From a virus (taxonomy: Duplodnaviria > Heunggongvirae > Uroviricota > Caudoviricetes), in the IMG/VR virus record IMGVR_UViG_3300029643_000041: 35,620 nucleotides of DNA; one strand, given 5' to 3'. The position numbers were made by a program, and so were the translations under genes. Positions 1-35,535 of this stretch are shown here, in pieces. Below the pieces are notes generated by a model, which was not told the origin of the DNA, did no database searches, and was given only the letters and a program-made list of their open reading frames with translations. Numbering within the stretch: the first letter of the stretch is position 1; the number at the start of each line of letters is the position of its first letter.

Positions 1-55
1 GGCATCAGTCTTAATTAGTGCCACTGCTTTTCTTTGATGTCCCCATTTTGTGGAG

Positions 56-99
56 CCCATCAACCCCGCCATTTCGGTTCAAGGTTGATGGGTTTTTTG
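56..99 (+). terminator. Host-side hairpin plus T-run overlapping attL
   Basis: cccatcaacc / ggttgatggg 10-bp stem with about 17-nt loop, followed by tttttt; the 3' arm and the T-run lie in the att core. Confidence 0.45.
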
Positions 100-113
100 T
101 TGCCTGAAATTTA
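88..113. repeat. attL core, 26-bp direct repeat atgggttttttgttgcctgaaattta
   Basis: Exact copy of the sequence at 34939-34964; lies just outside ogr, where P2/186 phages carry att. Confidence 0.75.
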
Positions 114-2070: not shown

Positions 2071-5000
2071 GCGTCGTATCCCCCCTGATCGCTGTAGTTA
2101 CTCCTGGCTTTTGCCTTCAGCCTGCGTTCACGTTCATCAAGCTGGCGGGCCACCTCCCGCGCAATATCCTGCGCACTTTGTCCTGGCTGTGTCTGGATGA
2201 TGATCTGCGTCGGTGCTTCAATCCGGTAAATGGGCGGCACAGTAGCTGCACGACTCACCATCGCTTCACCGCCTTTCGCGGGAAGCGCCAACGGATGCAA
2301 CGGTGGAAGCTCTGCAGGCGCGGCAGCAACGCCCATCATTCCGGCAACAACGGCAGCCAGTGCAGCTGTATTTCTCCGGCTGGTCACATTTGCCGGGCCG
2401 TTAACAATTTCCGGCCCGTTTTCACCGACGATGCCAAACTGCCCGCGCGGGATATAGCCGCCGCTGTCATACATCCCCGCAAAGCCATATCCCCATGACG
2501 GAAAACCACCCGATGGCATCATCACTTTACCGTCTGCATTCACCGTCGCAGGTTGCTGACGCGTCACGCTTTCCGGCAGTTTCGCCTTTGCAGCCTCTTT
2601 ACTGACAATGCCGAGTTTATCCAGCAACCAGGAAACGCCGGATTTCAGGGAGTCCAGCGGATGCATGACCATATTCAGCCCTTCCGCCAGTGCCTCCCCG
2701 AATCTCCGCCCCATTGCCGCTGCGCTCTGCAGTTCGGCAGAGGTCGACTTAACGGGTGTCAGCAGATCAGTAAACCAGCCCCACAGCGCCTGCACTTTGT
2801 CGCCAATCCACTGAAACACAGGCTTAAGTGGTTCGAACGCTGCACTGATGGGACCTGCCGCCGCTTTGAATCCTTCCACCACGCCACCAAGAAATGCGGT
2901 GATGGGTTGCCAGTATTTCCAGACAACCAGCGCCACGCCCGCCAGTGCAGTAACCACAAGACCTATCGGACTGAGCAGAGCGCCTAACAGACCAGATATG
3001 GCATACAGAGCAACGCGCAGCATCGCCAGCGGGCCGGATGCCAGCACTCGCAGCACCGCGCCTGCGGCTGCCAGTCCACCGCGCAGTACCGCCAGAGGAT
3101 TCATAAACATCACAGCAACAGCACGTAAAGCGGATAATCCAGACCGCAACAGTGCAACCGGCGCACCTGCTACAGTTTTCAGGACATTCCCCGTCAGTGA
3201 TGCCGTGCGGCGCAAAGACGACAACGGCGCAGTAAGTAAACCCGCTGCGTTGCCCGATGAAGCAAGCCTGCGTCGCAGCAGTGCCAGTGGAGCGCCAGCT
3301 AACCAAGACAACGCGCTGCTGGTTCGTGTTACTGCTGCCGTAACGGAAGGTAACGTTTTGATACCCAGCACAGAGAATCCCAGACGGATGACTGCCAGCG
3401 GCCCCAGCACTGCAGCCAGCGCCACCGCTAAGGTGCCGAGGCCCACGGTAACGGCAGCCACAACAGCCGCTACTTTCATCAGTGTGCCTGTCAGTTCCGG
3501 GTTAGCTTCCACCCAGCGGCGCAACGACCCCGTGATGCTTTTCACCGTGTACAGAATATCCATCAGCGGCTGGCGCAGCGTTTCGCCCAGGCTGCTGAAG
3601 GTGTTCTGCGCTCCGGTTTTGACCAGCAACCACTGAGCAGAAAGTGAGTCTTTGTTGATGTCGGATTCTTTCTGCATGGAACCGAGCGCATCATTGCCCG
3701 CTGTCAGTTTTAACTGGCGCTGCAGTTCCGGAAGGTTGTTTGCCAGTTTCGCCGCGTCATCTCCAAACTCTTTACCAAACAACATGGTCATGGCAGACAG
3801 ACGCTTATCCTGCGGCAGTGCGTTCACCTTCTCCAGCACACGCTGGATAGTTCCCATCGCATCCTTCGTCATCTGCTTTTCAATCACTTCAGGATTGAGT
3901 TTCAGCAGATTCATCCCTTCAAAGAAACTCTTGCTCTGCATGGTGGCAATGGACAATTCACGCACCATCGCGTTTGCTGCACTGGCTGCAACCTCCGGCG
4001 CAGCGCCCAGTGTCAGGAAGGTGGAACCCAGCGCCGCCGCTTTACGATAATCCAGACGGTCAGCCACACCGCCCAGACGTTGCATGACATCAATGATGTC
4101 TGCCCCTTTCGACATGGCGTTATCATCCAGATAGTTCAGCGCATCACCGAGCTGTTCAATATTGCGGGTAGGGATTTTGTAGAGCTGGGCGATTTTCCCC
4201 AGACTTTCTGACAGTTCATCCGCTGGCAGCTCAAAGGCTGTTGCAGCCTTTGCTGCCGTACTGGCGAAGGCCAGCAGGTCACGTTTCTGGTCTTCCCAGC
4301 TGTCGTCAGGATTTGCGACGTTCATGCGCGCACCACCTTCAACCAGTGCGGCAAAGTCCACAGCACCGTTTTCCATCGGCAACTGTTCGCTGGCAGCCTT
4401 GATGGCATCCTGCATTTCGTAAAAACGCGCAGTGCGGTTGCCATTATCATCACGCAGACCATTGACCTGCTTTGCCACACCTTTCATGGCATCTTCCATG
4501 CTGGTATAGCTTTTTACTGCTGCCATCACTGGCGCACCCATTGCCAGCCCTGCAGCCGTGGTAGTGGCTCCGGCTCCTGCAATGCGATCGCGCACTTCAA
4601 GCCGTCTTGAGTATTGTTCTCTGGCAGCGTTCATCCGTGCCTGTTGTTCACCCAGACGTTTAAGTGCTTTTTGCTGGCCCTCCAGTGCCTGCCTTGTTTC
4701 TTCAGCATTTTTCTTAAGTTCTCGCTGGGCACTACTGAGTTGTCTGGTATCAATCCCTGATTCTTTAAGTGCCTGACGTTGTCTCTGGACCGCCCCCAAC
4801 AAGCCGTTATAGGTCTGCTGAAGTTCCTGTACTCGTGTTTTGGCCTGACTGAATAACTTTGCCTGCGCGGCGGTTGGCCTGTTAGTGGCAGCAAATTGTG
4901 TGGCGAGTTTTGCCGCCTCTTCGCGGGCTGCGTTCAGGTTGTTGGCTGTTATGGCTAGTTGCGAGCGCGTCTTGCGAAATTCATCAATTCTGCCAGCCTG

Positions 5001-7467: not shown

Positions 7468-8034
7468 TCAGGGAGATTCATTGCTCTTATTTGCCGGAAA
7501 TTTTCGATAAATGGTAGAAACGCCTACATCAAAAATCAGTGCAATACGCTGTCTTGATTCTCCGGCCTCGAGTAAACGCCCAATCTGTGCCCACTGTTCG
7601 CTGGTCAACTTAGGACGGCGTCCACCTACTCTGCCTTTAACACGAGCTGCAGCCAGCCCTGCCCTGGTACGTTCAACTATCAGTTCGCGTTCCATTTCAG
7701 CCAGGGCACCCATGACATGAAAAAAGAAACGGCCCATTGGGGTACTGGTATCAATACTGTCAGTCAGGCTTCGGAAATTCACGCCACGCTGGCGCAACTC
7801 TTCTATCAGCGTAACAAGATGCCGCATACTGCGCCCCAACCTGTCCAGCTTCCAGACAACCAGCGTGTCTCCTGCCGATAGTGTTCTGAGCAGTTTTTTC
7901 AGTCCCGGTCGGTCGGACTTCGTGCCGCTGATTTTATCCTCAAAAATCCGCTCGCATCCTGCGCACTCCAGCGCGTTACGCTGCAATTCCGTGTTCTGGT
8001 CATTTGTTGACACGCGTACATAGCCAATAAGCAT
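7468..8034 (-). CDS. Serine recombinase, DNA invertase of the Gin/Hin/Pin/Cin family
   Basis: 188 aa; MLIGYVRVSTNDQ...DTLVVWKLDRLGRS...MGRFFFHVMGALAEMERELIVERT...GGRRPKL...GVSTIYRKF closely resembles Hin/Gin, including the catalytic Ser region and C-terminal HTH. Confidence 0.9.
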   Translation of the reverse strand: MLIGYVRVSTNDQNTELQRNALECAGCERIFEDKISGTKSDRPGLKKLLRTLSAGDTLVVWKLDRLGRSMRHLVTLIEELRQRGVNFRSLTDSIDTSTPMGRFFFHVMGALAEMERELIVERTRAGLAAARVKGRVGGRRPKLTSEQWAQIGRLLEAGESRQRIALIFDVGVSTIYRKFPANKSNESP

Positions 8035-8091
8035 GAGTATCCCCCTGAATAAAAACCGGAGATGATGCCTGTTGCCCGTTATCTCTGCATT

Positions 8092-8115
8092 TTCATAAAC
8101 GTTGGTTTAGGAGAA
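8092..8115. repeat. Inversion crossover site 1 (gix/hix-like)
   Basis: ttcataaacgttggtttaggagaa; its reverse complement shares a 14-bp half-site (ttctcctaaaccaa) with the site at 9881-9906; lies next to the invertase gene. Confidence 0.65.
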
Positions 8116-8460
8116 GCGGCGAAAAGGGATGTGGGCACAGGAGATAATCAGATACCGGATATGTCTTTCTGGTCTTCCGCATCGGGTGGCGTTAATTTCC
8201 CTAATGGATTCCAGATGCGATTCGGTGCTATCGCTGGTAATGGTGGAAAATTATTTTCTACGCCATTTACAAATCAGTGCTATGGCATTGTTTTCGGACA
8301 AACATATGGAGCCAACTACTGGATGTTCAGCCCGATGTACAGAGCATCTGATCTGAGTAATACCAGTTTTGCATTCATTAACAAAGCCTGGTCTGGAATT
8401 CCGGGGACAGGTGCTCAGGACGCTGGTGAATCAGTTTTTTATATTGCAGTAGGGTATTAA
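8104..8460 (+). CDS. Alternative, currently unexpressed tail-fibre C-terminal segment
   Basis: Open frame from the crossover site encoding GLGEAAKRDVG...NGFQMRFGAIAG...; would join the constant part of H (…LSYLGLGE) in frame after inversion. Confidence 0.6.
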   Translation, partial: GLGEAAKRDVGTGDNQIPDMSFWSSASGGVNFPNGFQMRFGAIAGNGGKLFSTPFTNQCYGIVFGQTYGANYWMFSPMYRASDLSNTSFAFINKAWSGIPGTGAQDAGESVFYIAVGY

Positions 8461-8461
8461 T

Positions 8462-8905
8462 ATGGAAATGGTTTATAGCGCCTCAAATAATAGTTTTTTC
8501 GCTAAAAATGATGTGGCGAAATATGAACAGGCCGGATGGGAACTTGCTGATATTGTCGAAGTGACATATGACACTTACCTGGAATTTATTGAAGACAGAA
8601 CGTTGCAAGGGAAAGTACGCATCGCGGGTGATGATGGCCTTCCCACCTGGGGGGAAATTCCACCGCCAACTCATGAGGAACAAATTGCCGCAGCCGAACT
8701 GGAAAAGCAGCAATTGATTAATCAGGTCAACGAATACATAAACAGTAAGCAATGGCCTGGTAAAGCAGCGATTGGTCGCCTAAAAGGTGAGGAACTGGCG
8801 CAATATAATTTGTGGCTGGATTATCTGGACGCACTGGAACTGGTTGATACCTCCAGTGCTCCAGATATTGAATGGCCTACGCCTCCGGCAGTTCAGGCCA
8901 GATGA
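8462..8905 (+). CDS. Alternative tail fibre assembly protein
   Basis: 147 aa; C-terminus (…ELVDTSSAPDIEWPTPP) parallels the C-terminus of G (…TATDTSTAPDVIWPELP); converges on G with a 29-bp 3' overlap. Confidence 0.75.
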   Translation: MEMVYSASNNSFFAKNDVAKYEQAGWELADIVEVTYDTYLEFIEDRTLQGKVRIAGDDGLPTWGEIPPPTHEEQIAAAELEKQQLINQVNEYINSKQWPGKAAIGRLKGEELAQYNLWLDYLDALELVDTSSAPDIEWPTPPAVQAR

Positions 8906-9479
8906 CGTCCGGCGCTGTGCTGGTATCTGTTGCCGTCACCGCATCAATGTAATCCAGCACAGCGTTAAGTCGGGTGTTTTCTGTCTGCGTCAGCTTCCGC
9001 CCGGCCTGCAATTTCAGTTGAATCAGACTAATGGAAGCCATTGCAGTATCAATCAGTGACTGACGCTGTGCTTCTGCCGCGTCTAGTGCGGCGCTATGCT
9101 GTGCCTCAGTATCTGTCACCCATTTCTCACCATCCCATTCATCGTATGGCGTTAACGGGGCGATAGTGGTTGTATTTTCAGGGTAATCACCTGGTGCTGT
9201 GATTTCTTTTGATTCTCCTGTTTCGGTGCTAAAAACGATTTCACCGCGATGGTCTGGCACATATTCCCATGAGTTAAAATCTGCAGAACGGCAGATTGCA
9301 TAACCAGCTTTACGTGTAACTGGTGAATCTAAACAGGAATATGCAGGGATACCGACACCAATGGCAAGATATTCATTTGAAGTAGAAATATATTCCCGAG
9401 TTTTACCATCATAGTTATAGACGGTAATATTCCCCGCCTTCGTGGCAATAAGCTCGCTATTTAATACGGCGTTATCCAT
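8877..9479 (-). CDS. G: Tail fibre assembly protein G
   Basis: 200 aa directly downstream of H; carries the conserved Tfa C-terminal motif. Confidence 0.85.
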   Translation of the reverse strand: MDNAVLNSELIATKAGNITVYNYDGKTREYISTSNEYLAIGVGIPAYSCLDSPVTRKAGYAICRSADFNSWEYVPDHRGEIVFSTETGESKEITAPGDYPENTTTIAPLTPYDEWDGEKWVTDTEAQHSAALDAAEAQRQSLIDTAMASISLIQLKLQAGRKLTQTENTRLNAVLDYIDAVTATDTSTAPDVIWPELPEA

Positions 9480-22202: not shown

Positions 22203-22886
22203 TTAAGGCATTCTATTCTCAAAAACATGCTTTATCGCAGTGGTAAAGCATCTATCTTTTACATTCTTTTTAAACTCATCAAAGACCATAGATCTAACAT
22301 CTTCAATTTCACATCCTGATTCAATAAGCTGAGATGCACATCCGACCAGTTCCTTTATTAATGTCATGCTTAATTCTATTGCACGTCTTCTTTCCGCCTT
22401 GACTCCTCCTGAGGACGGGTTTAAGTTAAATACTCTTAACGTAACCTCTGCCATTTTGTGTTCTTTCTCATTCAAGCCTTCTCTAATATGAACATCACCA
22501 TTTTCCAAAAAATGGAAAAAAACATCTGGATTTTGTCTATCAGCTTTAATTAAATCATCATCGTTATATTTTTGCTTATCCTTATAAAACCCACACCTTT
22601 GCGGCTCACCACATGAGCCAAACAAATTAGACCACTCGAAAGTTAAATTTTTGTAATAACTTTTCCTGTAAAAATGTTCAATATGCCTCTCAACTTTATT
22701 TTTGCCACCACTTTTATGATGCTCTATTTTTTTCTCGCAATAAGCACATAATTTACCTTGCATTTTTATTATTTCTTCCCATATTTCTTTTTTATCATTT
22801 GATGATAGGGAATTCCAATCATCCCTCCTATAGTCAAATTTATTAAGAACGGAAGGCCCTGGCATTTGCCTAGATAGATATTTCAT
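22203..22886 (-). CDS. HNH endonuclease, Septu PtuB-like retron effector component
   Basis: 227 aa; CAYCEKKIEHH...VERHIEHFYRK...CGEPQRC HNH/zinc motif; start overlaps the ATPase stop (ATGA); strongly AT-rich. Confidence 0.8.
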   Translation of the reverse strand: MKYLSRQMPGPSVLNKFDYRRDDWNSLSSNDKKEIWEEIIKMQGKLCAYCEKKIEHHKSGGKNKVERHIEHFYRKSYYKNLTFEWSNLFGSCGEPQRCGFYKDKQKYNDDDLIKADRQNPDVFFHFLENGDVHIREGLNEKEHKMAEVTLRVFNLNPSSGGVKAERRRAIELSMTLIKELVGCASQLIESGCEIEDVRSMVFDEFKKNVKDRCFTTAIKHVFENRMP

Positions 22887-24517
22887 TTTACATCCTTACT
22901 TCCAGAAAAGTGCTGATTTATCTTATTTTTGAACTCCAAAACAGATATAAGATCATCACACTCTTGAACTAAAGGATGGTCTAATCCGAAATGTTTAATA
23001 ACTTTTTCTCTTAACAAAAGAGCCTCGTCACTGCTATAACGATTAAGCTCAACCAATTTTTTATATTCTTCAAGCCAACCATTTTCTTTAGTAGAGGGTA
23101 TAGGATCAGTTCTCATTCCATATAAAAGTGCATCCTGATTACTAACACCTTTTATTTGATAGTCGGGGTGAGACACTATCAAATCATTAACACCATCTAC
23201 TTCCACTTCCTGTAGAATACGCACTGAACGAGAGCTAACAGTGGATAAAACCTGTGGGCTATGGGTAGTAATTACAAATTGAACATTTGGGAATGTAGAT
23301 GTCAAACGCTCAATAATTGTCTGTTGCCATTGCGGATGCAAATGCAAATCAATTTCATCAATTAAAACAATCCCATATCCCAATAGAGGATTAGATAAAT
23401 TTGGATTAAGTAAAATTAAACGTCGAGCCAAATCACCAACTAAAGTAAATATAGTTTTCTCACCTTGAGACAACTGTTGAATATCTAATTCAACCTCTCC
23501 TTTTTTAAGGATAATCTTATAATCATCATCACCATAAACAAGCTTAATCCACTGAAATTCAGGCAAGAACTTTAGAATGGTATTTATAACACTATCATAA
23601 AGTGATACTGCATTATTAAACTTATGTTCTCCTGATTGCAGAGATTTCATGTAGTTCAATTTTTCTTTAAGCGAAAGCTCTAAACCTTTTATAACTGTTG
23701 AATCAATATTATCAATCGCAGATAGTTGAGTTAATGTTGCTTTCAAACTCTGAATATCTGAAAATAACGCATTGATTGTCGTTTGTGACTCACTCAATTT
23801 CTCTTGTGAAGCTCTGTTATGAAGAAATACAAGCCATTGAAAAAAATCGGTAAAATCATTTCTGTCAAACTCGATTTCATCATACACATCGAATTTTGAC
23901 CATACAGTTTTAGTTTTAGCATTTTTTCTTTTCCTATCAACCCCACCGCCTATATAAGAACGCGCAATAGAATAATATGCCATCAAAGGCAAGCTTGCAT
24001 TATCAACATATTTATTCACAAGTCTATAAATACTTGCAAGTTTTTTTATCTCCAACAATTCATTATTTCTAGAATAATATGCCCCCTCTTTCGCTTTAGT
24101 AATCAAAATACTGGTATTAAAGTCCTTGAGTTTTATATTTGCATCAATTGATGCATACTCAACATCAACAGAGTTATTAACTTCATGGCTTTTAATATAA
24201 GTACCAGGCTTACTCTCCTTTTCAATATTTGATCTCAACCAACTCAAAACAATTGCTATTGCATCCAAAATAGTGCTTTTACCGAATCCGTTATCCCCGA
24301 CAAAAACAGTCAAATCATCTTCTAAAGAAATCTGTAGTTCTCTTATCCGTTTAAAATCATGTATACCTATTTTATTTAAATGAAACTTACTCTCATTTAA
24401 AGTAGATATTAGCTTTTGAAGCTCAACAGACTCCTTCAAATAATCCTCGTTTATCACATGTGATTCCAACTCTAAAAAATCAACATAGCAAGTCTCTAAA
24501 TTCATTTTATTTATCAT
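22883..24517 (-). CDS. P-loop ATPase, Septu PtuA-like retron effector component
   Basis: 544 aa; Walker A VFVGDNGFGKST, Walker B VLIDEIDLHLHP, then ITTHSP; translationally coupled to the RT upstream and the HNH downstream. Confidence 0.8.
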   Translation of the reverse strand: MINKMNLETCYVDFLELESHVINEDYLKESVELQKLISTLNESKFHLNKIGIHDFKRIRELQISLEDDLTVFVGDNGFGKSTILDAIAIVLSWLRSNIEKESKPGTYIKSHEVNNSVDVEYASIDANIKLKDFNTSILITKAKEGAYYSRNNELLEIKKLASIYRLVNKYVDNASLPLMAYYSIARSYIGGGVDRKRKNAKTKTVWSKFDVYDEIEFDRNDFTDFFQWLVFLHNRASQEKLSESQTTINALFSDIQSLKATLTQLSAIDNIDSTVIKGLELSLKEKLNYMKSLQSGEHKFNNAVSLYDSVINTILKFLPEFQWIKLVYGDDDYKIILKKGEVELDIQQLSQGEKTIFTLVGDLARRLILLNPNLSNPLLGYGIVLIDEIDLHLHPQWQQTIIERLTSTFPNVQFVITTHSPQVLSTVSSRSVRILQEVEVDGVNDLIVSHPDYQIKGVSNQDALLYGMRTDPIPSTKENGWLEEYKKLVELNRYSSDEALLLREKVIKHFGLDHPLVQECDDLISVLEFKNKINQHFSGSKDVK

Positions 24518-25452
24518 TATTTGTTTCCTTCCATCAGGAACTTAGTTATTAACTCACAACCATATTTTTTTTGTAACCTTAATAAAAAATCACCCTCCAA
24601 ATAATTTGCAAACGCAATCATCCCTTTGGTTTTATTTATTTCTTCGGAAGATAAGAGTCCCAAAGAATATTTATGAATCTTTGCAAACAGCATCCTTTTA
24701 CGATCGCGACCAATTGATAAATTGCCCTGAGGTGTAAGTGTTACACCAGTCACGTGCCGATTATGAGCCATCGATGTAAAAATTGTTTTAGATTCATTGA
24801 TTGATAGACCGGGAACATGGAGCGACAACATTTTTTTTACCACCTTAGGAACCCTGCACAATATATCCTTAATATTAGTTGAAAAAGTTATATCATCTGC
24901 ATACCTTGAATAAGTGATACCATTGTTACGGCACCAATCATCAAGACTCTTGTCAAAGTCATACATAACAAAATTACTAATAAATGGTGAGCTTGGCGCC
25001 CCTACACTTAATATCAACGTTGTACTTCTCTTTTTTCCCGGACGCCAAAAAAGCAAATTACGTAGGGTGTTCTCATCAAATGAATCCAATTTCAGCCCTG
25101 TGTTCTCAAGTTTCGAGAAAAATATATCAGGTTTAATTTTGTTAAAGAAGTTCTGAAAATCCATTTTAAGAATATAATTATTATCTTTATGCAACAATGC
25201 ATTATCTTTAATACTTTTTTTATATTCATATGCCATTGCCTTATGATGAACAGGCAGCTTTGGCTGTAGCAAAGATACTATAAATCTCTGTACGTTTTTT
25301 AGTTCCTTTGTCGGCTGAGCTATCACCCGAAAACCTGCGCCACGTTTAGGAATATAATAAACTTTATATTTTTTGGGGGCCTCATTTAAAAGTAATTGGA
25401 AAGCTAATCTATTATAATTAAACTTACTGATAATTTTAGAAGTTAGTTGCAT
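24517..25452 (-). CDS. Retron-type reverse transcriptase
   Basis: 311 aa; ILKMDFQNFF, SVGAPSSPFISNF, YSRYADDITF (YxDD box) and the retron-typical VTG triplet (HNRHVTGVTL); AGAGGGG Shine-Dalgarno before the ATG; preceded by a structured non-coding region. Confidence 0.85.
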   Translation of the reverse strand: MQLTSKIISKFNYNRLAFQLLLNEAPKKYKVYYIPKRGAGFRVIAQPTKELKNVQRFIVSLLQPKLPVHHKAMAYEYKKSIKDNALLHKDNNYILKMDFQNFFNKIKPDIFFSKLENTGLKLDSFDENTLRNLLFWRPGKKRSTTLILSVGAPSSPFISNFVMYDFDKSLDDWCRNNGITYSRYADDITFSTNIKDILCRVPKVVKKMLSLHVPGLSINESKTIFTSMAHNRHVTGVTLTPQGNLSIGRDRKRMLFAKIHKYSLGLLSSEEINKTKGMIAFANYLEGDFLLRLQKKYGCELITKFLMEGNK

Positions 25453-25700
25453 ATAACCCCTCTTAAAACCAAAGCGCCATGCAACTTTACATAGCGCTTT
25501 GACTCTTCACTAAAGACAGCGAAAGACACAGATTTCTCCTTCGCATATCTGCCCCGGGCAGGGATGCGAAGGAGAAATCTGTGTCTTTCGCAACCCTAAA
25601 CCGGACAATAAATTTAAGCCTGGCTAATCACCCGGCTGGAACCAATGTTCCTACACTAAAGAGCGTAATGATTTTAATGAACAAATAGATATAAGGCAAG
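25453..25700 (-). ncRNA. Candidate retron msr-msd non-coding RNA (limits approximate)
   Basis: Non-coding stretch directly 5' of the RT on the same strand; 28-bp perfect inverted repeat (arms 25519-25546 and 25564-25591, 17-nt loop) consistent with an msd stem; smaller hairpins at 25638-25651 and 25461-25490. Flanking a1/a2 repeats were not resolved by eye. Confidence 0.5.
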
Positions 25701-26515: not shown

Positions 26516-28888
26516 TTAATACAGGTTTCGCCACTTATCATCTTCCTGCAAACGCTGGTTCCGATAGAAGATACGTAGGCCTGCTCCTGACGGAATACTG
26601 CCGCCGCGAAGCAGTAAATCGACCTCTTTCTCGCTGCCATCAAATCCCCTGGACTTCAGTTCATACACGAGCTGCAGTCGCTGATGGTCTGTAATTCGCT
26701 GTTTGTAGTCTTTACGCCGTTTCGGTTTCACCAGGCGTAACCTTGCTGCCAGTTCCCGGCGCTCTTTTTTGCTCATACTGTGCAGGTAATCGTGCAACTC
26801 CTTGTCATCCATGCGGGTGATATCCGTTCTGGTATCTCCATCAGTTGATTTGTCTTTCCCTTGTTGGTACAAATTTTCAGCAAGGGGACAGTTATTGCCA
26901 CGAGTCCAAGGGGCGCAAGCGCCCTGGTCGGCTGCCGCCTCCTGAACGTCAACGGCTTTACGAACCATTTTCCACTTCACTGCATGAGTGCAGATCTTAC
27001 CCTCTGCAATGGGTGACCAGATGCCATAAATACGAATACCGTGATCGCCATAGGCGGTCGGCTCTTCGTTAATTTCATAAGCTGTTCTGATAAGGTGATA
27101 TTTGCGGGGAACCAGCACGCCGCCCTGCTTCATGATGTAGGTGGCAAAACAGCCAGCATCAGCAGCAGCCAGGATGGCATCAAGGCGTGGGTTATCCAGT
27201 ACCGGCGCACCTGCTTTTTTGTCCCCCTGCTGCCTTGCCGCCTGACCAGCCAGCAATCGCAGTTCACGGTAAGCCTGACGCCCCGGAATACCAAAGAAGC
27301 GGAATTGCTGAACACGATGCAGAGACGCCCAGGCATTAACGTATTCAGCGTTATCACGCAGGGATTTACCCGTTTCCTTGCTGATCTCACCAGCCAGACC
27401 ACGCCCGTCAATGTTCTTACTGATGTATTTCGCGATGTAGCTTGTTGGCGTACCTTTGCGCGGGTTTATCAGCTCAGACTTAAAGCGTGGTCCCGTGTTA
27501 TTACCCAGCTCCTCGCGGTCTTCACGAATGGCAAACTTACGCAGTAATGCAGTGATGGCGCGGCGGTCTTTTTTGCGCATAAAACACAACAGGTGCCAGT
27601 GAACTGTACCGTCATGATGCGGCTCAGCCACCCGCACGCCATACCAGCGCAATCCGGCTTTGTGCATCGCCTTACGAAATGCAGCAAACATGCCGACCAA
27701 ATAATCACTGCTTTGTCTTACTGTCGCGTTGGTCCAGGTCGGGTTTGGCCTGCCGTTATTTAGCGTGGAATGGAAACGTGACGGACAGGTGATGGTGTAG
27801 AAAACGGCGCAGTCACCACGCATTTCCGCGATAAGCTCCAGGCCTTTAACACAGGCCATCATCTCGTTGCGGCGATGCGCCGGGTTGCTGCTGCTGGCGT
27901 TTACCACATCCTCCATGTTCAGCGTGTCGCCGTCTTCGTTCACCAGTTCATGAGAACGGAAAAACTCCAGCGACTTACGGCGCTGCTCACGTTTATGCAT
28001 CACGGCTTCATAGCTGACATAGGGAGATGCTTTTTTGCTGACCAGGCAGACAGCACGCAACTGCTCTTCCCGCCATTCGCAACGCATCTTCCATAATTTC
28101 CGATACCACCAGTCGGCGCACAGCATACGCGCCAGCGAACCCGGAATGAGTTCATAAGGCACAGGTTTGCGGCGGTTTCTTTTCCGGCGGAGTTGCTCAA
28201 ACGCAGGCGGTATGACATCCAGTCGCAGGGTTTCTGCAGCCACCTTTTCCCATGTCTTGCGGATTTCTTCTGGCTTAACATCATCGGTGGCATACAAATC
28301 ACCACAAGCTACATCAAGGCACATACTCATATGCGCAGCTACCAGGGTGGACAGGCGTTTCACCTGATCCTGACTCATTTCAGGCAGAATCAGCAGGCCG
28401 TCCAGCCCTTCATGGCTTGCCATAAAGCGAAAAGAAGTGGATAGCTGACTGTCGCGTACATGCTCCAGCCGTTCCAGACATGGCTTAATCGTCTCACGCA
28501 AATAGCGGGAATAAGCCTTTGGCCTGCCAAGGCTGCTGAAGTATTCAATACGTTGCATCAGCGGCTTGCTGATATGGGAAGGCTGGGCATTGACGTCCGC
28601 CAGAATGACCATATCTGGATTAAAACGCTGCTGCTCATGCGCCAGCTTTGCCCGACTAATGAGCTTATCCTGCTCCATTTCGCGCTGGACAGGATCACGG
28701 GATTCATTAAAGAAATAACGCTCCCAGACCTGATCACTCAGTACCTCGCGGCGCAGGTGTTCCTGCTCGTTATCGGCAGCGTACAGAGCGATCAGGTTTG
28801 AAAGCGCAGAAACTGAAGATTGCTCTTCTGTCTCTACGTAAGGATTGATTGCTTTTTTCTCAGCATTCCAGGAATAGCTGTAGTTCAT
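26516..28888 (-). CDS. A: Rolling-circle replication initiator endonuclease A
   Basis: 790 aa (P2 gpA is 761 aa); contains the [10 protein letters not shown] metal-binding motif region of the GPA family. Confidence 0.9.
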
Positions 28889-29718
28889 TACGCAATCTCC
28901 AGTTCGAGCTGTGAAGGCTGCAAACCATTCGACAGCCAGTCAGAAACTGAAGGTGGGCGAACAGCTTCAATTGCACCTTTTAAAATTGCGCAACGGTTTT
29001 TCAGAATGACAGCTTTCAGCTCCTTTTCCGTCAGATTGCGCGAATACTCAGCCTCCTGAATAGCCCGCGTAAGCTCAGGATATTTGCTATTAAATTTGGG
29101 GACATTGCAGGCAAGATTTGTACTGTCGGCAGTCGCCAGTGGGTAATTTCCCAACACACGACCGTCAAGCATGCGCAAACCATGAACAGCTGTTTTGAAA
29201 TTGTGTCGGCAATAAATTGCTTCAAAAGCGTCCTGCATACGACGATGCCAGTGCGCAGTTCTAATAGCCGCATATTCACCAGACGATCCAAAGCAGACAC
29301 GAGGCCATTCACGACATAGCTCGATAAGCCGATCGATTGACTCGTGCAGATGCCAGACGGGAGTTGCCTTCCCGTAGAACATTTTCGGAACTTCGTTTAT
29401 CAGGGCATCATTGTCACGTTCACCTCCGTCCACAACATCAGGAATGACAAAAAAAGCGACCTTAGGATGGTGGTAATAGTTCAGGAGCCATTTATAAAAA
29501 TCACTCCAGTTAATTTTTAGCCCACGCCCCCATGCAGAAAATGCGCCGTTATCAATGCCAACGACCTGAGCGTGCTGAATGGACGCCGCAATCTGATCTG
29601 GTCGTACATAGGAGACGAAAGCACCAGCTCCGCTCACCGCAATACGATGAACGTCGCCAGCACTTCCCCAGACAGGCGTCCCATGGAAATGATGAATTCC
29701 GTGGTGCATTTCTTTCAC
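28888..29718 (-). CDS. Hypothetical protein (276 aa), translationally coupled between dam and A
   Basis: Open frame with start overlapping the dam stop and stop overlapping the A start; His-rich N-terminus and a [10 protein letters not shown] motif; no family assigned by eye. Confidence 0.7.
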
Positions 29719-30569
29719 ACTTGCACCCCGAAAATAACAGTAGAGTCACGTCCCCTACTAAAATCGGCACTAAACCAATTAGCAGATTTAGTGGCAATCA
29801 TCTCTGTTGCAAATTTTCCCTCCCCCGCTGCAACGCCGATGCTGCGTTTCGCCCTGATGTAGTGGTGAGTGAAATTACGATAAAGAGACCGGGTCAAAGA
29901 CGTGTCACTGTTAGAAACAATGACCGGATGTCCTTCAGATGCTCGATGTTCAAGAACGGATGCCAGGTGATACTGGTCATCTTCAGTGAAACCATCAGTG
30001 TGATAGCCGGAAAACGTACCGTCATACGGCGGATCGCAATACACCACATCCCCCGCCTTCAACATCGCCAGCGTTTCATCAAAGCTGGCGCAGAAAAACG
30101 TTGCCCGCTGGGCTTTTTCTGCAAATGCGCGAATTTCTTTTTCAGGGAAATACGGATTTTTATAATTACCGTAGGGAATGTTGAAATGCCCGCTCTTGTT
30201 ATAGCGGCATAAACCACGGTAACCGTGACGATTGAGATACAGAAAATATACCGCTTTCATGAAATCAGTAATTTCAGTGGAGTAATTAAACTCCTGCCTT
30301 ATGTTGTAATAAGCCACCTCCCTGTTTGCGATCTCAAATAAAACTCTGGCGCGAGATATAAACGATTCACAATCAGCGGCAACCTTTTTATAGAGGTTGA
30401 TTAAATCAGGATTAATATCCGCAACCAGATAGCTGGGGTAATCCGTCTCCATCATCACAGCACAGGAACCCGCGAAAGGTTCAACCAGTCGCGGGCCAGC
30501 AGGAAGGTGTTTTTTCAGTTCGGACATTATGGCGGTTTTATTTCCCGCCCATTTCAGGATAGTGCTCAT
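29715..30569 (-). CDS. dam: DNA adenine methyltransferase, Dam-like (D12 class)
   Basis: ILKWAGNK N-terminal motif and DPPY catalytic motif ([10 protein letters not shown]); start taken at the Met of [11 protein letters not shown] (track ORF begins 20 codons upstream at TTG). Confidence 0.85.
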
Positions 30570-30793
30570 ACAGCACCTCCGTTGTAATGTTTGCCTTTCA
30601 GCTCTGCGATTTCCTGACAGGTAATGCAAAGCTGCACACCCGGAATGGCACGGCGGCGTGCTGGCGGAATTGGCGCTTCACACTCAATGCAAAGCACGCG
30701 AGACACGCCCGGTGTTTTGGCACGGGCAGCACGGATATGGCGCTGGCGTTCTTCTTCAACGCGCTGCTGTACGAGATCCATTGCATCAGCCAT
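30566..30793 (-). CDS. TraR/DksA-family C4 zinc-finger protein
   Basis: 75 aa; CIECEAPIP...CITCQ four-cysteine motif. Confidence 0.75.
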   Translation of the reverse strand: MADAMDLVQQRVEEERQRHIRAARAKTPGVSRVLCIECEAPIPPARRRAIPGVQLCITCQEIAELKGKHYNGGAV

Positions 30794-32414: not shown

Positions 32415-32454
32415 GGATCGTTTGTATTTTGTGAACACCATAAACATACGATCG
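32415..32454. promoter_or_regulatory. Candidate immunity-switch operator palindrome between apl and cI
   Basis: ggatcgtttgtatttt-gtgaacacc-ataaacatacgatcg, an imperfect inverted repeat centred in the 119-bp switch region. Confidence 0.4.
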
Positions 32455-32495
32455 CATCATGAAATCGTCAAGATAAAAGTTCACTTGGAGTGACC

Positions 32496-33272: not shown

Positions 33273-33458
33273 TTTTTGCTTTTATATCTGCGCCTAATAT
33301 AACAATGAGCCGCAGGCTAACCGCAAAAGTCACATACTCACATAGCAAAAAATAGCCAACTTCATTATGGCTTCAGTGAGATGTATGGTCGCAAGATTTC
33401 ATACATTGACACTGGTTATACATACAGTAAAAATGCTCTCTATTGGAGGGCATTTTTT

Positions 33459-34490
33459 ATGGCAGTACGAAAACTCACCACAGGAAAATGGCTTTGCGAA
33501 TGTTACCCCGCCGGACGTAGTGGGCGTCGTGTGCGTAAACAATTCGCCACCAAAGGCGAAGCACTGGCTTTTGAGCGTCACACGATGGAAGAAACCGAAG
33601 CAAAGCCCTGGCTGGGCGAATCAGTAGATCGTCGAACCCTGAAAGACGTGGTTGAGCTATGGTTCAAACTACATGGTAAATCTCTGACTGCTGGGCAGCA
33701 TGTCTATGACAAATTGCTGCTGATGGTTGACGCTCTGGGCAATCCCCTTGCAACCGATCTCACATCTAAAATGTTTGCCCATTATCGAGATAAACGACTG
33801 ACAGGTGAGATCTACTTCAGCGAGAAATGGAAGAAAGGGGCCAGCCCGGTCACCATTAACCTGGAGCAAAGCTATCTAAGTAGTGTTTTTAGCGAACTAT
33901 CCCGCCTGGGCGAATGGTCGTATCCAAACCCACTGGAGAACATGCGAAAATTCACCATCGCAGAAAAAGAGATGGCATGGCTTACCCATGAGCAGATTGT
34001 TGAACTGCTGGATGATTGCAAACGTCAGGACCCAATTCTGGCACTGGTAGTCAAGATATGCTTAAGCACAGGCGCACGCTGGCGAGAAGCAATAAACCTT
34101 ACCCGCTCACAGGTGACCAAATACCGAATTACCTTTGTCAGAACGAAGGGGAAGAAAAACAGAAGCATCCCTATCAGTAAAGAGCTTTACGAAGAGATCA
34201 TGGCGCTCGATGGGTTCAATTTCTTCACAGACTGCTATTTTCAATTTTTATCCGTGATGGAAAAAACGTCTATCGTGCTCCCTCGCGGTCAACTGACACA
34301 CGTTCTGCGCCATACGTTTGCGGCGCATTTTATGATGTCGGGTGGAAATATCCTTGCTTTGCAAAAAATCCTCGGACATCACGACATAAAAATGACTATG
34401 CGTTACGCACATCTAGCACCGGATCACCTGGAAACTGCATTACGGTTTAATCCGCTGGCAACACTACCAACATCAATAGCAAGTTTTTGA
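33459..34490 (+). CDS. int: Tyrosine integrase
   Basis: Start at MAVRKLTTGKW (P2 Int begins MAIKKL); C-terminal HVLRHTFAAHFMMSGGNILALQKILGHHDIKMTMRYAHL catalytic region. The track ORF begins 26 codons upstream. Confidence 0.9.
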   Translation: MAVRKLTTGKWLCECYPAGRSGRRVRKQFATKGEALAFERHTMEETEAKPWLGESVDRRTLKDVVELWFKLHGKSLTAGQHVYDKLLLMVDALGNPLATDLTSKMFAHYRDKRLTGEIYFSEKWKKGASPVTINLEQSYLSSVFSELSRLGEWSYPNPLENMRKFTIAEKEMAWLTHEQIVELLDDCKRQDPILALVVKICLSTGARWREAINLTRSQVTKYRITFVRTKGKKNRSIPISKELYEEIMALDGFNFFTDCYFQFLSVMEKTSIVLPRGQLTHVLRHTFAAHFMMSGGNILALQKILGHHDIKMTMRYAHLAPDHLETALRFNPLATLPTSIASF

Positions 34491-34968: not shown

Positions 34969-35535
34969 CTACCCAGCAATCCTCTCAACCATCCTCAAAA
35001 TCTCCTCGCGTGATAGCGGCTTACGGTCGGTGACAAAATGCAGCGTCATTCCCTCAATAAACGCATCAAGCGCGCGGGCGGTTCCGGGTTCAAACCATTG
35101 TTCGAGCGTTTGTTGACTGCGCTGCATCCAGTTTTGCATTACCGTTTTTAAGAGCGGTTTTCGGCTAGCCAGCGCGTAGAGCTGGTACATCAGCTCCATA
35201 TTATCCGGCGTTGCGACCTGTGAGCTGTAGATCATATCGGTGATAGCCTGGCATGCGCCTGGAGCATCACTAACATCGCTAAAAAATGCCTGATATTGCC
35301 GGGACATGATCTCAGTAAAACGGCTGAACGCCTCCAGCAACAACTCATCAATTCCTGAAAAATAGTAGGTCATCGATCCCAACGGCACCCCGGCAAGGGT
35401 AGCAATTGTGCGGTGTGTAACAGCATGTATTCCGTAAAGTTTCACCGCCTCCAGCGTGGCCTGGATAATTTTTTCTCGCCGTTGCGGATCGTTAGCGCGA
35501 CGCATGTCATTTCCTCTCTCTGCAATTGTGTACAA
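34969..35535 (-). CDS. Host TetR-family transcriptional regulator
   Basis: 188 aa; N-terminal TetR HTH ([37 protein letters not shown]); lies outside attR. Confidence 0.85.

Follow-up and report, generated by a model that had tools for sequence, protein, structure and literature searches.

A probable phage DpdA without a zinc site, encoded directly upstream of gene A in a P2-like prophage of Escherichia coli

What kind of protein does a P2-like prophage encode directly upstream of its replication gene A, at a place where the databases give only the label 'hypothetical protein'? The question is raised by IMG/VR record IMGVR_UViG_3300029643_000041, a stretch of 35,620 nucleotides (hereafter the window, to which all coordinates refer unless another locus is named) that was found to be a complete P2-like (Peduoviridae) prophage of Escherichia coli. 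Its minus-strand early operon contains, between a dam gene and gene A, an open reading frame (ORF) for a protein of 276 amino acids (aa). This protein is probably a phage DpdA, that is, a minimal zinc-less member of the tRNA-guanine transglycosylase (TGT) fold that belongs to the 'singleton' group and would exchange guanine in DNA for host-made 7-cyano-7-deazaguanine (preQ0). A first-pass annotation of the same DNA had named the DpdA family as one speculative possibility. That guess gained support from a match to PHROG 887, homology to the DpdA of phage 9g, a TGT-type fold and the fact that the ortholog in phage SEN1 had already been listed as a DpdA.

The gene and its early operon

The early operon runs in the order cox-like gene, CII, DUF5347, DUF2732, TraR/DksA zinc finger, Dam, the 276-aa ORF and gene A. 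The features of it that the argument needs are the following.

32443-32471, minus strand: candidate early promoter Pe, sigma-70-like (TTGACG-17-TATGTT, 9/12), between the CI-type repressor and cox-like genes
30566-30793, minus strand: TraR/DksA-type C4 zinc-finger gene, homolog of P2 orf82 and at the same position as it (PF01258 and TIGR02419)
29715-30569, minus strand: dam, Dam-family N6-adenine DNA methyltransferase, 284 aa (PF02086, E 2.3e-75; TIGR00571)
28888-29718, minus strand: dpdA-like gene, predicted DNA-guanine transglycosylase with a zinc-less TIM barrel, 'singleton' DpdA group of phages
26516-28888, minus strand: gene A (gpA), rolling-circle replication endonuclease (PF05840, E 8e-127)

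The last four genes lie head to tail as the first-pass annotation had placed them, and the ATGA, GTGA and TAATG junctions can be read from the sequence. The TraR stop and the dam start form an ATGA overlap, GTATGAGC, with GGAGG 7 nt upstream. The dam stop and the start of the 276-aa ORF form a GTGA overlap, GTGTGAAAGAAATG, provided that the GTG at 29718 is the start codon. The stop of the 276-aa ORF and the start of A form a TAATG overlap at 28888, GCGTAATGAAC, in which the A of the dpdA stop is the first base of the ATG of gene A. The second junction depends on the start codon chosen: the GTG at 29718 gives 276 aa, an N-terminus reading MKEMHHG... and the overlap with dam that had been described, whereas the ATG at 29709, which is the RefSeq/PGAP choice, gives 273 aa and a 5-nt gap after the dam stop. 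The earlier description of a 276-aa protein beginning with MHHG... combined the two, the length being that of the GTG product and the quoted N-terminus that of the ATG product; both motifs quoted from the protein are present in it. Translation of the dpdA-like gene is probably coupled to that of Dam and gpA.

The dam gene, the 276-aa ORF and their neighbours are judged from the sequence to be real genes, not chance ORFs. For the 276-aa gene this follows from 4312 database relatives at E ≤ 1e-5 (90%-clustered database; 908 clusters at 50% identity) and from alignment A1, in which 41 homologs with identities of 59-85% have 66 invariant columns. A terminator and promoter scan of the operon returned nothing beyond chance except the plausible Pe site, which is a consensus match only, in a region not enriched in comparable sites, and whose position corresponds to that of P2 Pe. 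Because the dpdA-like gene lies in the early replication operon, its product is presumably made only after infection or induction.

Sequence family, fold and predicted active site

The 276-aa protein was found to match phrog_887, 'queuine tRNA-ribosyltransferase', with E 8.4e-96, and the validated DpdA of Enterobacteria phage 9g matches the same PHROG with E 2e-98. Homology to 9g DpdA was also detected directly at the sequence level, as comparison of the family profile with 9g DpdA by hhalign gave E 7.8e-6 over 150 columns. Searches of phage genomes with tblastn revealed 75.7% identity to gp38 of Salmonella phage SEN1, 54.7% to the DpdA of Pantoea phage vB_PagS_MED16 (hereafter MED16) and 34% to the DpdA of Salmonella phage 7-11; lambdoid phages, SfI and SPN3UB among them, carry short versions that are about 40% identical across the barrel. 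The length of most relatives is about 240-255 aa, their ends falling near residue 205, and the C-terminal extension is therefore peculiar to the P2/MED16 clade. Family hosts include E. coli, Enterobacter, Citrobacter, Klebsiella, Salmonella, Serratia, Pectobacterium and Yersinia, among others. All close database relatives are labelled 'hypothetical protein' and carry no precomputed Pfam domain, and the RefSeq label of the protein is the same.

Two observations on individual relatives may be added. In phage 7-11 the 'queuine tRNA-ribosyltransferase' (3001-3774 of its locus, L089) has its coding sequence annotated from locus position 3070, and homology, including the beta-1 region, begins upstream of this at about 3001-3025; the true start codon thus probably lies upstream of the deposited one. 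In one 36.6-kb Logan contig, a protein of 421 aa joins a Dam domain (PF02086) to a 99%-identical DpdA-like copy; rather than a real fusion, this most likely reflects a sequencing error or frameshift at the GTGA overlap.

An AlphaFold2 model made from a 41-sequence alignment (predicted local distance difference test, pLDDT, 85.8; predicted template modelling score, pTM, 0.83) is a TIM barrel, in which helices alternate with eight beta-strands, followed by a helical C-terminal extension (residues 206-276). The four best solved neighbours of the model all belong to the TGT superfamily: Cap10, bacterial DpdA, TGT and archaeosine TGT. Unrelated TIM barrels follow close behind them, at 13.3, and the fold alone is therefore not decisive. 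Foldseek placed Cap10 first (E 7e-5) and PDB 7UI4, the bacterial DpdA (bDpdA) of S. Montevideo, only 45th, and in the BFVD collection of predicted viral structures every named match at E < 1e-3 is a phage 'queuine tRNA-ribosyltransferase'.

Conservation was examined in A1 and in a broader alignment, A2, of 61 relatives that includes 9g DpdA and reaches down to 18% identity; a third, A3, is cited below where it bears on a residue. Six columns are invariant in A2 (D56, H123, G144, H179, D198 and S199), and a further eight are at least 90% conserved (H12, G13, N57, G58, A59, P93, D94 and E126). In the model, the conserved active-site residues lie each at or just past the C-terminal end of a barrel strand. 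Their codons are as follows.

29551-29553, minus strand: Asp56, in IDNGAFS at the end of strand 3; predicted general acid/base
29539-29541, minus strand: Phe60; predicted gating Phe, at least 90% conserved in A1 and matching 9g Phe75
29437-29439, minus strand: Asp94, in IPDV at the end of strand 4; predicted to recognise guanine/7-deazaguanine
29350-29352, minus strand: His123, in PVWHLHE at the end of strand 5; predicted to recognise the base edge
29278-29289, minus strand: Gly144-Ser-Ser-Gly147, FGSSG loop past strand 6; predicted 7-substituent pocket
29182-29184, minus strand: His179, in HGLRML at the end of strand 7; aligns with 9g His196
29125-29127, minus strand: Asp198, in ADST at the end of strand 8; predicted to be the covalent nucleophile

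Asp56 is invariant in A1, A2 and A3 and aligns with 9g Asp71 (LDSGAFS); likewise, the Asp198-Ser199 pair is invariant in all three and aligns with 9g CDSS, Asp198 corresponding to 9g Asp215. Asp94 is invariant in A1, and automatic alignments put the 9g Asp three columns off. The G-S-S-G sequence is also invariant in A1. The residue counterpart of His179 in 9g, His196, is conserved in DpdA/DpdA1 and missing in DpdA2 (Hutinet 2019, PMC6884629). Equivalences to bDpdA, TGT and Cap10 were assigned by strand order and spacing; the roles of the bDpdA residues were set by structure and mutagenesis (PMC10164549). On this basis Asp56 and Phe60 are predicted to be equivalent to bDpdA Asp95 (acid/base) and Phe99, Asp94 to bDpdA Asp130 and TGT D156, and His123 to bDpdA His181, TGT Gln203 and Cap10 Lys154 (PMC10164549; bioRxiv 2025.04.06.647259). 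The Gly144-Gly147 loop would correspond to bDpdA Gly206/207, and Asp198 to bDpdA Asp256 and TGT Asp280. His179 is probably the hydrogen-bond partner of the nucleophile, by analogy with the catalytic pair H226/D248 of Cap10 (bioRxiv 2025.04.06.647259).

Two features of the protein had been singled out in the first-pass annotation. The motif likened there to a transglycosylase active site aligns with 9g IFLDSGAFSAY and holds the predicted general acid/base Asp and gating Phe, as supposed. The His-rich N-terminus fared less well as a special feature, being mostly the conserved beta-1 motif HxHG(T/S)P; a separate metal-binding tag at this place was ruled out from the alignment and the model, which show a conserved beta-1 strand motif.

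Among known proteins, the closest counterpart is SEN1 gp38 (YP_009217891), which has 276 aa, aligns over 97% of the length, and is encoded directly upstream of A in a member of the Peduoviridae. SEN1 differs from the prophage in having an orf83-like gene upstream, in lacking dam there, and in its host and P2 lineage (Eganvirus). Supplementary Data 1 of Hutinet 2019 already includes SEN1 gp38 among the DpdA homologs, its phage lacking preQ0 genes. SEN1 gp38 and SW9 gp39, the latter likewise from a DpdA-only P2-like phage, were later named the closest viral homologs of MED16 DpdA (PMC8306585). MED16 DpdA (gp38) aligns with the prophage protein over its full length, including the C-terminal helical extension, and MED16 resembles the prophage in carrying dpdA without preQ0 genes together with an adenine methyltransferase. 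MED16 is nevertheless a lytic siphovirus, its methyltransferase is of another family and not similarly adjacent, and the two have no other gene in common. The DNA of MED16, in which only dpdA and no preQ0 genes were found, contains dADG (2'-deoxy-7-amido-7-deazaguanosine) at about 0.13% of G as well as N6-methyl-2'-deoxyadenosine (m6dA) (PMC8306585), and dADG was detected in phage 7-11 DNA at about 0.02% of G (PMC6884629).

More distant comparisons place the protein within the superfamily. The DpdA1 proteins of 9g and CAjan (Queuovirinae) have PHROG 887 and the motifs D-x-G-A-F-S, H-x-x-E, H-G and D-S-(S/T) in common with it, at only 18-19% identity in the case of 9g DpdA. The 9g enzyme acts without a DpdB-type ATPase, and the prophage gene likewise has no DpdB neighbour: neither a DpdB ATPase nor a dpd cluster was found among its neighbours (TraR, Dam and gpA). 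Whereas 9g and CAjan co-encode FolE, QueD, QueE and QueC or Gat-QueC and modify 25-32% of G, the prophage gene is a singleton, and in its relatives no more than about 0.1% of G is modified. Bacterial DpdA, from the Dpd restriction-modification system, is only 11% identical to the prophage protein and larger (413 versus 276 aa, with about 150 versus 78 residues after the nucleophile Asp); it has a CXCX2CX22H zinc site and a large Ins8 insertion, both missing from the prophage protein, and it belongs to a host defence island, whereas the prophage gene is a phage early gene. Cap10 of type IV CBASS (cyclic oligonucleotide-based anti-phage signalling system; PDB 9NTN), the best solved structural neighbour, is 11-12% identical. 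A zinc site is missing from both Cap10 and the prophage protein, and in both the nucleophile Asp has as its partner a His located about 20 residues upstream. Cap10, however, binds the deazaguanylated N-terminus of a CD-NTase (cGAS/DncV-like nucleotidyltransferase) and works with Cap9, and the prophage locus has no such partners. The likeness of Cap10 to the phage DpdAs hints at a common zinc-less lineage of bacterial defence and phage counter-defence enzymes.

The variable slot upstream of gene A and the rest of the prophage

The context of the dpdA-like gene was surveyed in the 80 closest viral (IMG/VR) loci. gpA lies directly downstream in 78 of them, the exceptions being one locus that ends before A (L081) and one without neighbours (L084), and this adjacency is kept even where gpA identity falls to 30-37%. 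The upstream side varies: TraR-Dam-DpdA-A was found in 50 loci, TraR-orf83-like-DpdA-A in 21 and TraR-DpdA-A in eight, with a TraR/DksA-type gene present in 73. The TraR/DksA-type gene is part of the P2 backbone and forms the upstream border of a variable slot, outside any modification module. In P2 itself this slot holds orf83 (DUF5405, 91 aa), between the DksA-like orf82 and A. The earlier statement that P2 has no genes here is thus correct for dam and the dpdA-like gene, both of which P2 lacks, and incorrect for orf83.

Across the Peduoviridae, the slot between the DksA/TraR-like gene and A appears as a variable cargo site, containing orf83 alone (P2), dam alone (phage Cartapus and Klebsiella phage KP12), an orf83-like gene with dpdA (SEN1), dpdA alone, or dam with dpdA (the window). 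In the close prophage relatives Cartapus and KP12, dam abuts A without dpdA. Since each gene occurs without the other, Dam and DpdA are not an obligate pair; an obligate Dam-DpdA module was ruled out, and the two are independent cargo of one variable slot. The case for a module of Dam and the 276-aa protein, as proposed in the first-pass annotation, is weaker: the arrangement is seen in the 50 loci with Dam-DpdA-A and not in the 21 with an orf83-like gene instead, the eight with neither or Cartapus with Dam alone. Of 5426 complete E. coli genomes, 102 were found to carry the full dam-ORF-A junction at 99% identity or more, the ORF always being labelled 'hypothetical protein'. Natural lysogens include E. 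coli 160-11H1, AR_0017 and UMNK88.

The assignment of Dam is supported by scores of 254 bits with PF02086 (cutoff 22) and 316.7 bits with TIGR00571 (cutoff 114.85), and by a DPPY motif at residue 179. In the E. coli Dam equivalog model it scores 287 against a cutoff of 441, which marks it as a phage Dam rather than the host ortholog. Its specificity is expected to be GATC.

The prophage is flanked on the left by the rybB small RNA gene (window 23-101; Rfam, 105 bits) and on the right by rcdA, of the TetR family (34969-35535), with the integrase at 33381-34490; the insertion site of the prophage is thus the E. coli intergenic region between rybB and rcdA. Two other regions stand apart from the early operon. 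A low-GC island (0.32-0.34; window 22203-25664, minus strand), with the portal gene on one side and the DinI/A region on the other, encodes a complete type I-A retron according to PADLOC. The island occupies the P2 site known as a defence hotspot, which in P2 holds old/tin. The second region, 7468-9479, is the usual invertible tail-fiber segment of P2-like phages and matches the annotation of a related E. coli prophage. Their features are as follows.

24517-25452, minus strand: retron reverse transcriptase (PADLOC RT_I-A, E 5e-131)
22883-24517, minus strand: PtuA-like ATPase (E 1e-193)
22203-22886, minus strand: PtuB/HNH (E 1.5e-117)
25600-25664: retron msr, sub-threshold Rfam match just upstream of the reverse transcriptase (45.9 bits, cutoff 52)
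25461-25598: STnc400, sub-threshold Rfam match just upstream of the reverse transcriptase (71.4 bits, cutoff 80)
7468-8034: recombinase-family (DNA invertase-like) gene
8062-8905 (plus strand) and 8877-9479 (minus strand): ORFs of tail-fiber-assembly size, in opposite orientation, beside the invertase-like gene

Proposed activity, competing readings and significance

How would a singleton DpdA obtain its base? Phages of the singleton group, which is group 3 of Hutinet 2019, encode no synthesis of preQ0 or G+. No folE, queD, queE or queC is present among the genes of the window, all of which are accounted for, and no preQ0 genes were found beside the closer and more distant phage relatives (RCIP0319, MED16, Vibrio K394, 7-11 and SfI). 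A singleton DpdA would therefore have to use the preQ0 of E. coli itself. The E. coli pool sufficed for the 9g enzyme: when expressed alone in E. coli, 9g DpdA inserts 2'-deoxy-preQ0 (dPreQ0) into plasmid DNA at 84-790 per 10^6 nt, and the hosts of gamma-proteobacterial singleton phages have the full preQ0 pathway (PMC6884629).

A mechanism can be proposed by analogy with TGT and bacterial DpdA. Upon infection or induction, the gene would be expressed from the early promoter. A target guanine of duplex phage DNA would be flipped into the barrel pocket, where Asp198 would attack C1' and expel guanine, leaving a covalent enzyme-DNA (glycosyl-enzyme) intermediate. His179 would position the nucleophile and Asp56 would serve as general acid/base, while Asp94, His123 and the GSSG loop would read the base. 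Host-made preQ0, from the E. coli FolE-QueD-QueE-QueC pathway, would then resolve the intermediate to 2'-deoxy-preQ0, which may end as dADG, as in MED16 and 7-11. Modification would be expected to be sparse, as dPreQ0 and/or dADG at well below 1% of G and probably motif-specific, in addition to m6A written by Dam at GATC; it may also have a protective role, such as the anti-restriction one suggested in the first-pass annotation.

Several results weigh against the assignment as a DNA-modifying DpdA. At the sequence level, no Pfam or NCBIfam family matched the 276-aa protein with a threshold as loose as E 0.1, and 9g DpdA has no Pfam match either. When the PDB was searched by sequence, the protein itself and two profiles of its family yielded noise only (a nanobody and GCN4 coiled coils). 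HMM-to-sequence methods thus cannot bridge to TGT or bacterial DpdA, and the link to these enzymes comes from the fold comparison and from published HHpred results for the relatives, among them 99.2% for MED16 DpdA against 2ASH. The protein also lacks the zinc motif CXCX2C...H that TGT and bacterial DpdA possess, as its five Cys residues (135, 142, 170, 204 and 243) form no CxCxxC. At the level of chemistry, dADG, the product found in the relatives, is not the expected product of DpdA alone, and no second gene common to the prophage and MED16 was found that could explain it, dpdA being the only one shared. Mycobacterium phage Orion, which carries a singleton DpdA, was found to have no modified bases, in a host without preQ0 synthesis (PMC6884629), and the dADG of MED16 did not noticeably affect the restriction enzymes that were tried (PMC8306585). 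PADLOC also gave no match for the protein at E 0.001. As for PF01702 (TGT), none of the 61 relatives matches it at E ≤ 1, 9g DpdA included.

The alternatives differ in what they accept of the DpdA assignment. One keeps the activity and changes its purpose: an active DNA 7-deazaguanine transglycosylase, not serving bulk anti-restriction, may write a few site-specific marks for use by the phage, for example in gpA-dependent replication, packaging or gene expression, or marks that evade one particular defence. The near-invariant position of the gene immediately upstream of gpA, whatever gene stands upstream and however diverged gpA is, speaks for such a role, as do the overlap of the dpdA stop with the A start, the low modification of the tested singleton phages (0.02-0.13% of G) and the failure of the MED16 modification to block the restriction enzymes tried. 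Site-specific marking would explain the near-invariant position of the gene, coupled stop to start with A, across three upstream architectures. Relatives in lambdoid, sipho- and lytic phages, however, occupy unrelated contexts, namely a recombination operon in SfI, head genes in Vibrio K394 and early genes in 7-11, and the linkage to gpA may therefore simply reflect a permissive slot that also takes dam or orf83. On balance, a role of this kind is a possible but rather improbable explanation. Slightly less probable still is its more specific form, in which the P2-like singleton DpdA writes a few dPreQ0/dADG marks tied to gpA rolling-circle replication or to evasion of one defence, and in which the zinc-less His-Asp lineage is the closest relative of Cap10.

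Three further alternatives were weighed. A conserved gene that causes no detectable modification in E. coli, as in Orion, or that has drifted to a non-catalytic role, is unlikely: Orion is matched by phiSM DpdA1, which was inactive on expression in E. coli, yet the host of Orion lacks preQ0 synthesis whereas gamma-proteobacterial hosts have the full pathway, and the invariance of the catalytic positions over hundreds of clusters argues for retained catalysis. It is very unlikely that a TGT-like enzyme acts here on RNA and alters the tRNA queuosine/preQ status of host or phage during infection. The fold and catalytic residues are common to tRNA-guanine transglycosylases and the relatives' database labels read 'queuine tRNA-ribosyltransferase', but these are inherited names, and 9g DpdA of the same PHROG modifies DNA. 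Furthermore, 7-deazaguanines were found in the DNA of 7-11 and MED16; the protein lacks the TGT zinc subdomain and the C-terminal tRNA-binding parts (276 versus 373-577 aa); and there is neither a Pfam TGT match nor an Rfam tRNA match in the window. Least probable of all is a protein that, like Cap10, binds or transfers a protein-linked 7-deazaguanine instead of inserting the free base into DNA: the QueC-like Cap9 and the CD-NTase with a Gly-rich N-terminus that it requires are absent from the window and from the 80 related loci, identity to Cap10 is as low as that given above, and the relatives detectable at the sequence level are phage DpdAs. The singleton phage DpdA assignment, with host preQ0 as the likely donor and DNA as the likely substrate, is thus retained as the probable one.

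What does the assignment add? The singleton phage DpdA group and a close ortholog, that of SEN1, are already catalogued, and the prophage protein is an added member. As the basic discovery was made in 2019-2021, the gain lies in annotation and in the choice of an experimental model, not in the concept. No mention of a DpdA function is made in a 2026 survey that covered 5945 P2-like genomes. The present analysis provides a name and a testable mechanism for a gene that at least 102 complete E. coli genomes carry under the label 'hypothetical protein'. Its family has thousands of copies in enterobacterial prophages and is missed by Pfam, NCBIfam and PADLOC. Temperate P2-like phages would also be a genetically easy system, with an E. 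coli host, an inducible prophage and que mutants, in which to ask about singleton DpdA proteins. Questions that such phages could address are which base is inserted, at which sites and to what level, and how dADG originates. A further question is whether sparse modification is protective against restriction, or instead exposes the phage to modification-dependent defences such as GrwAB.

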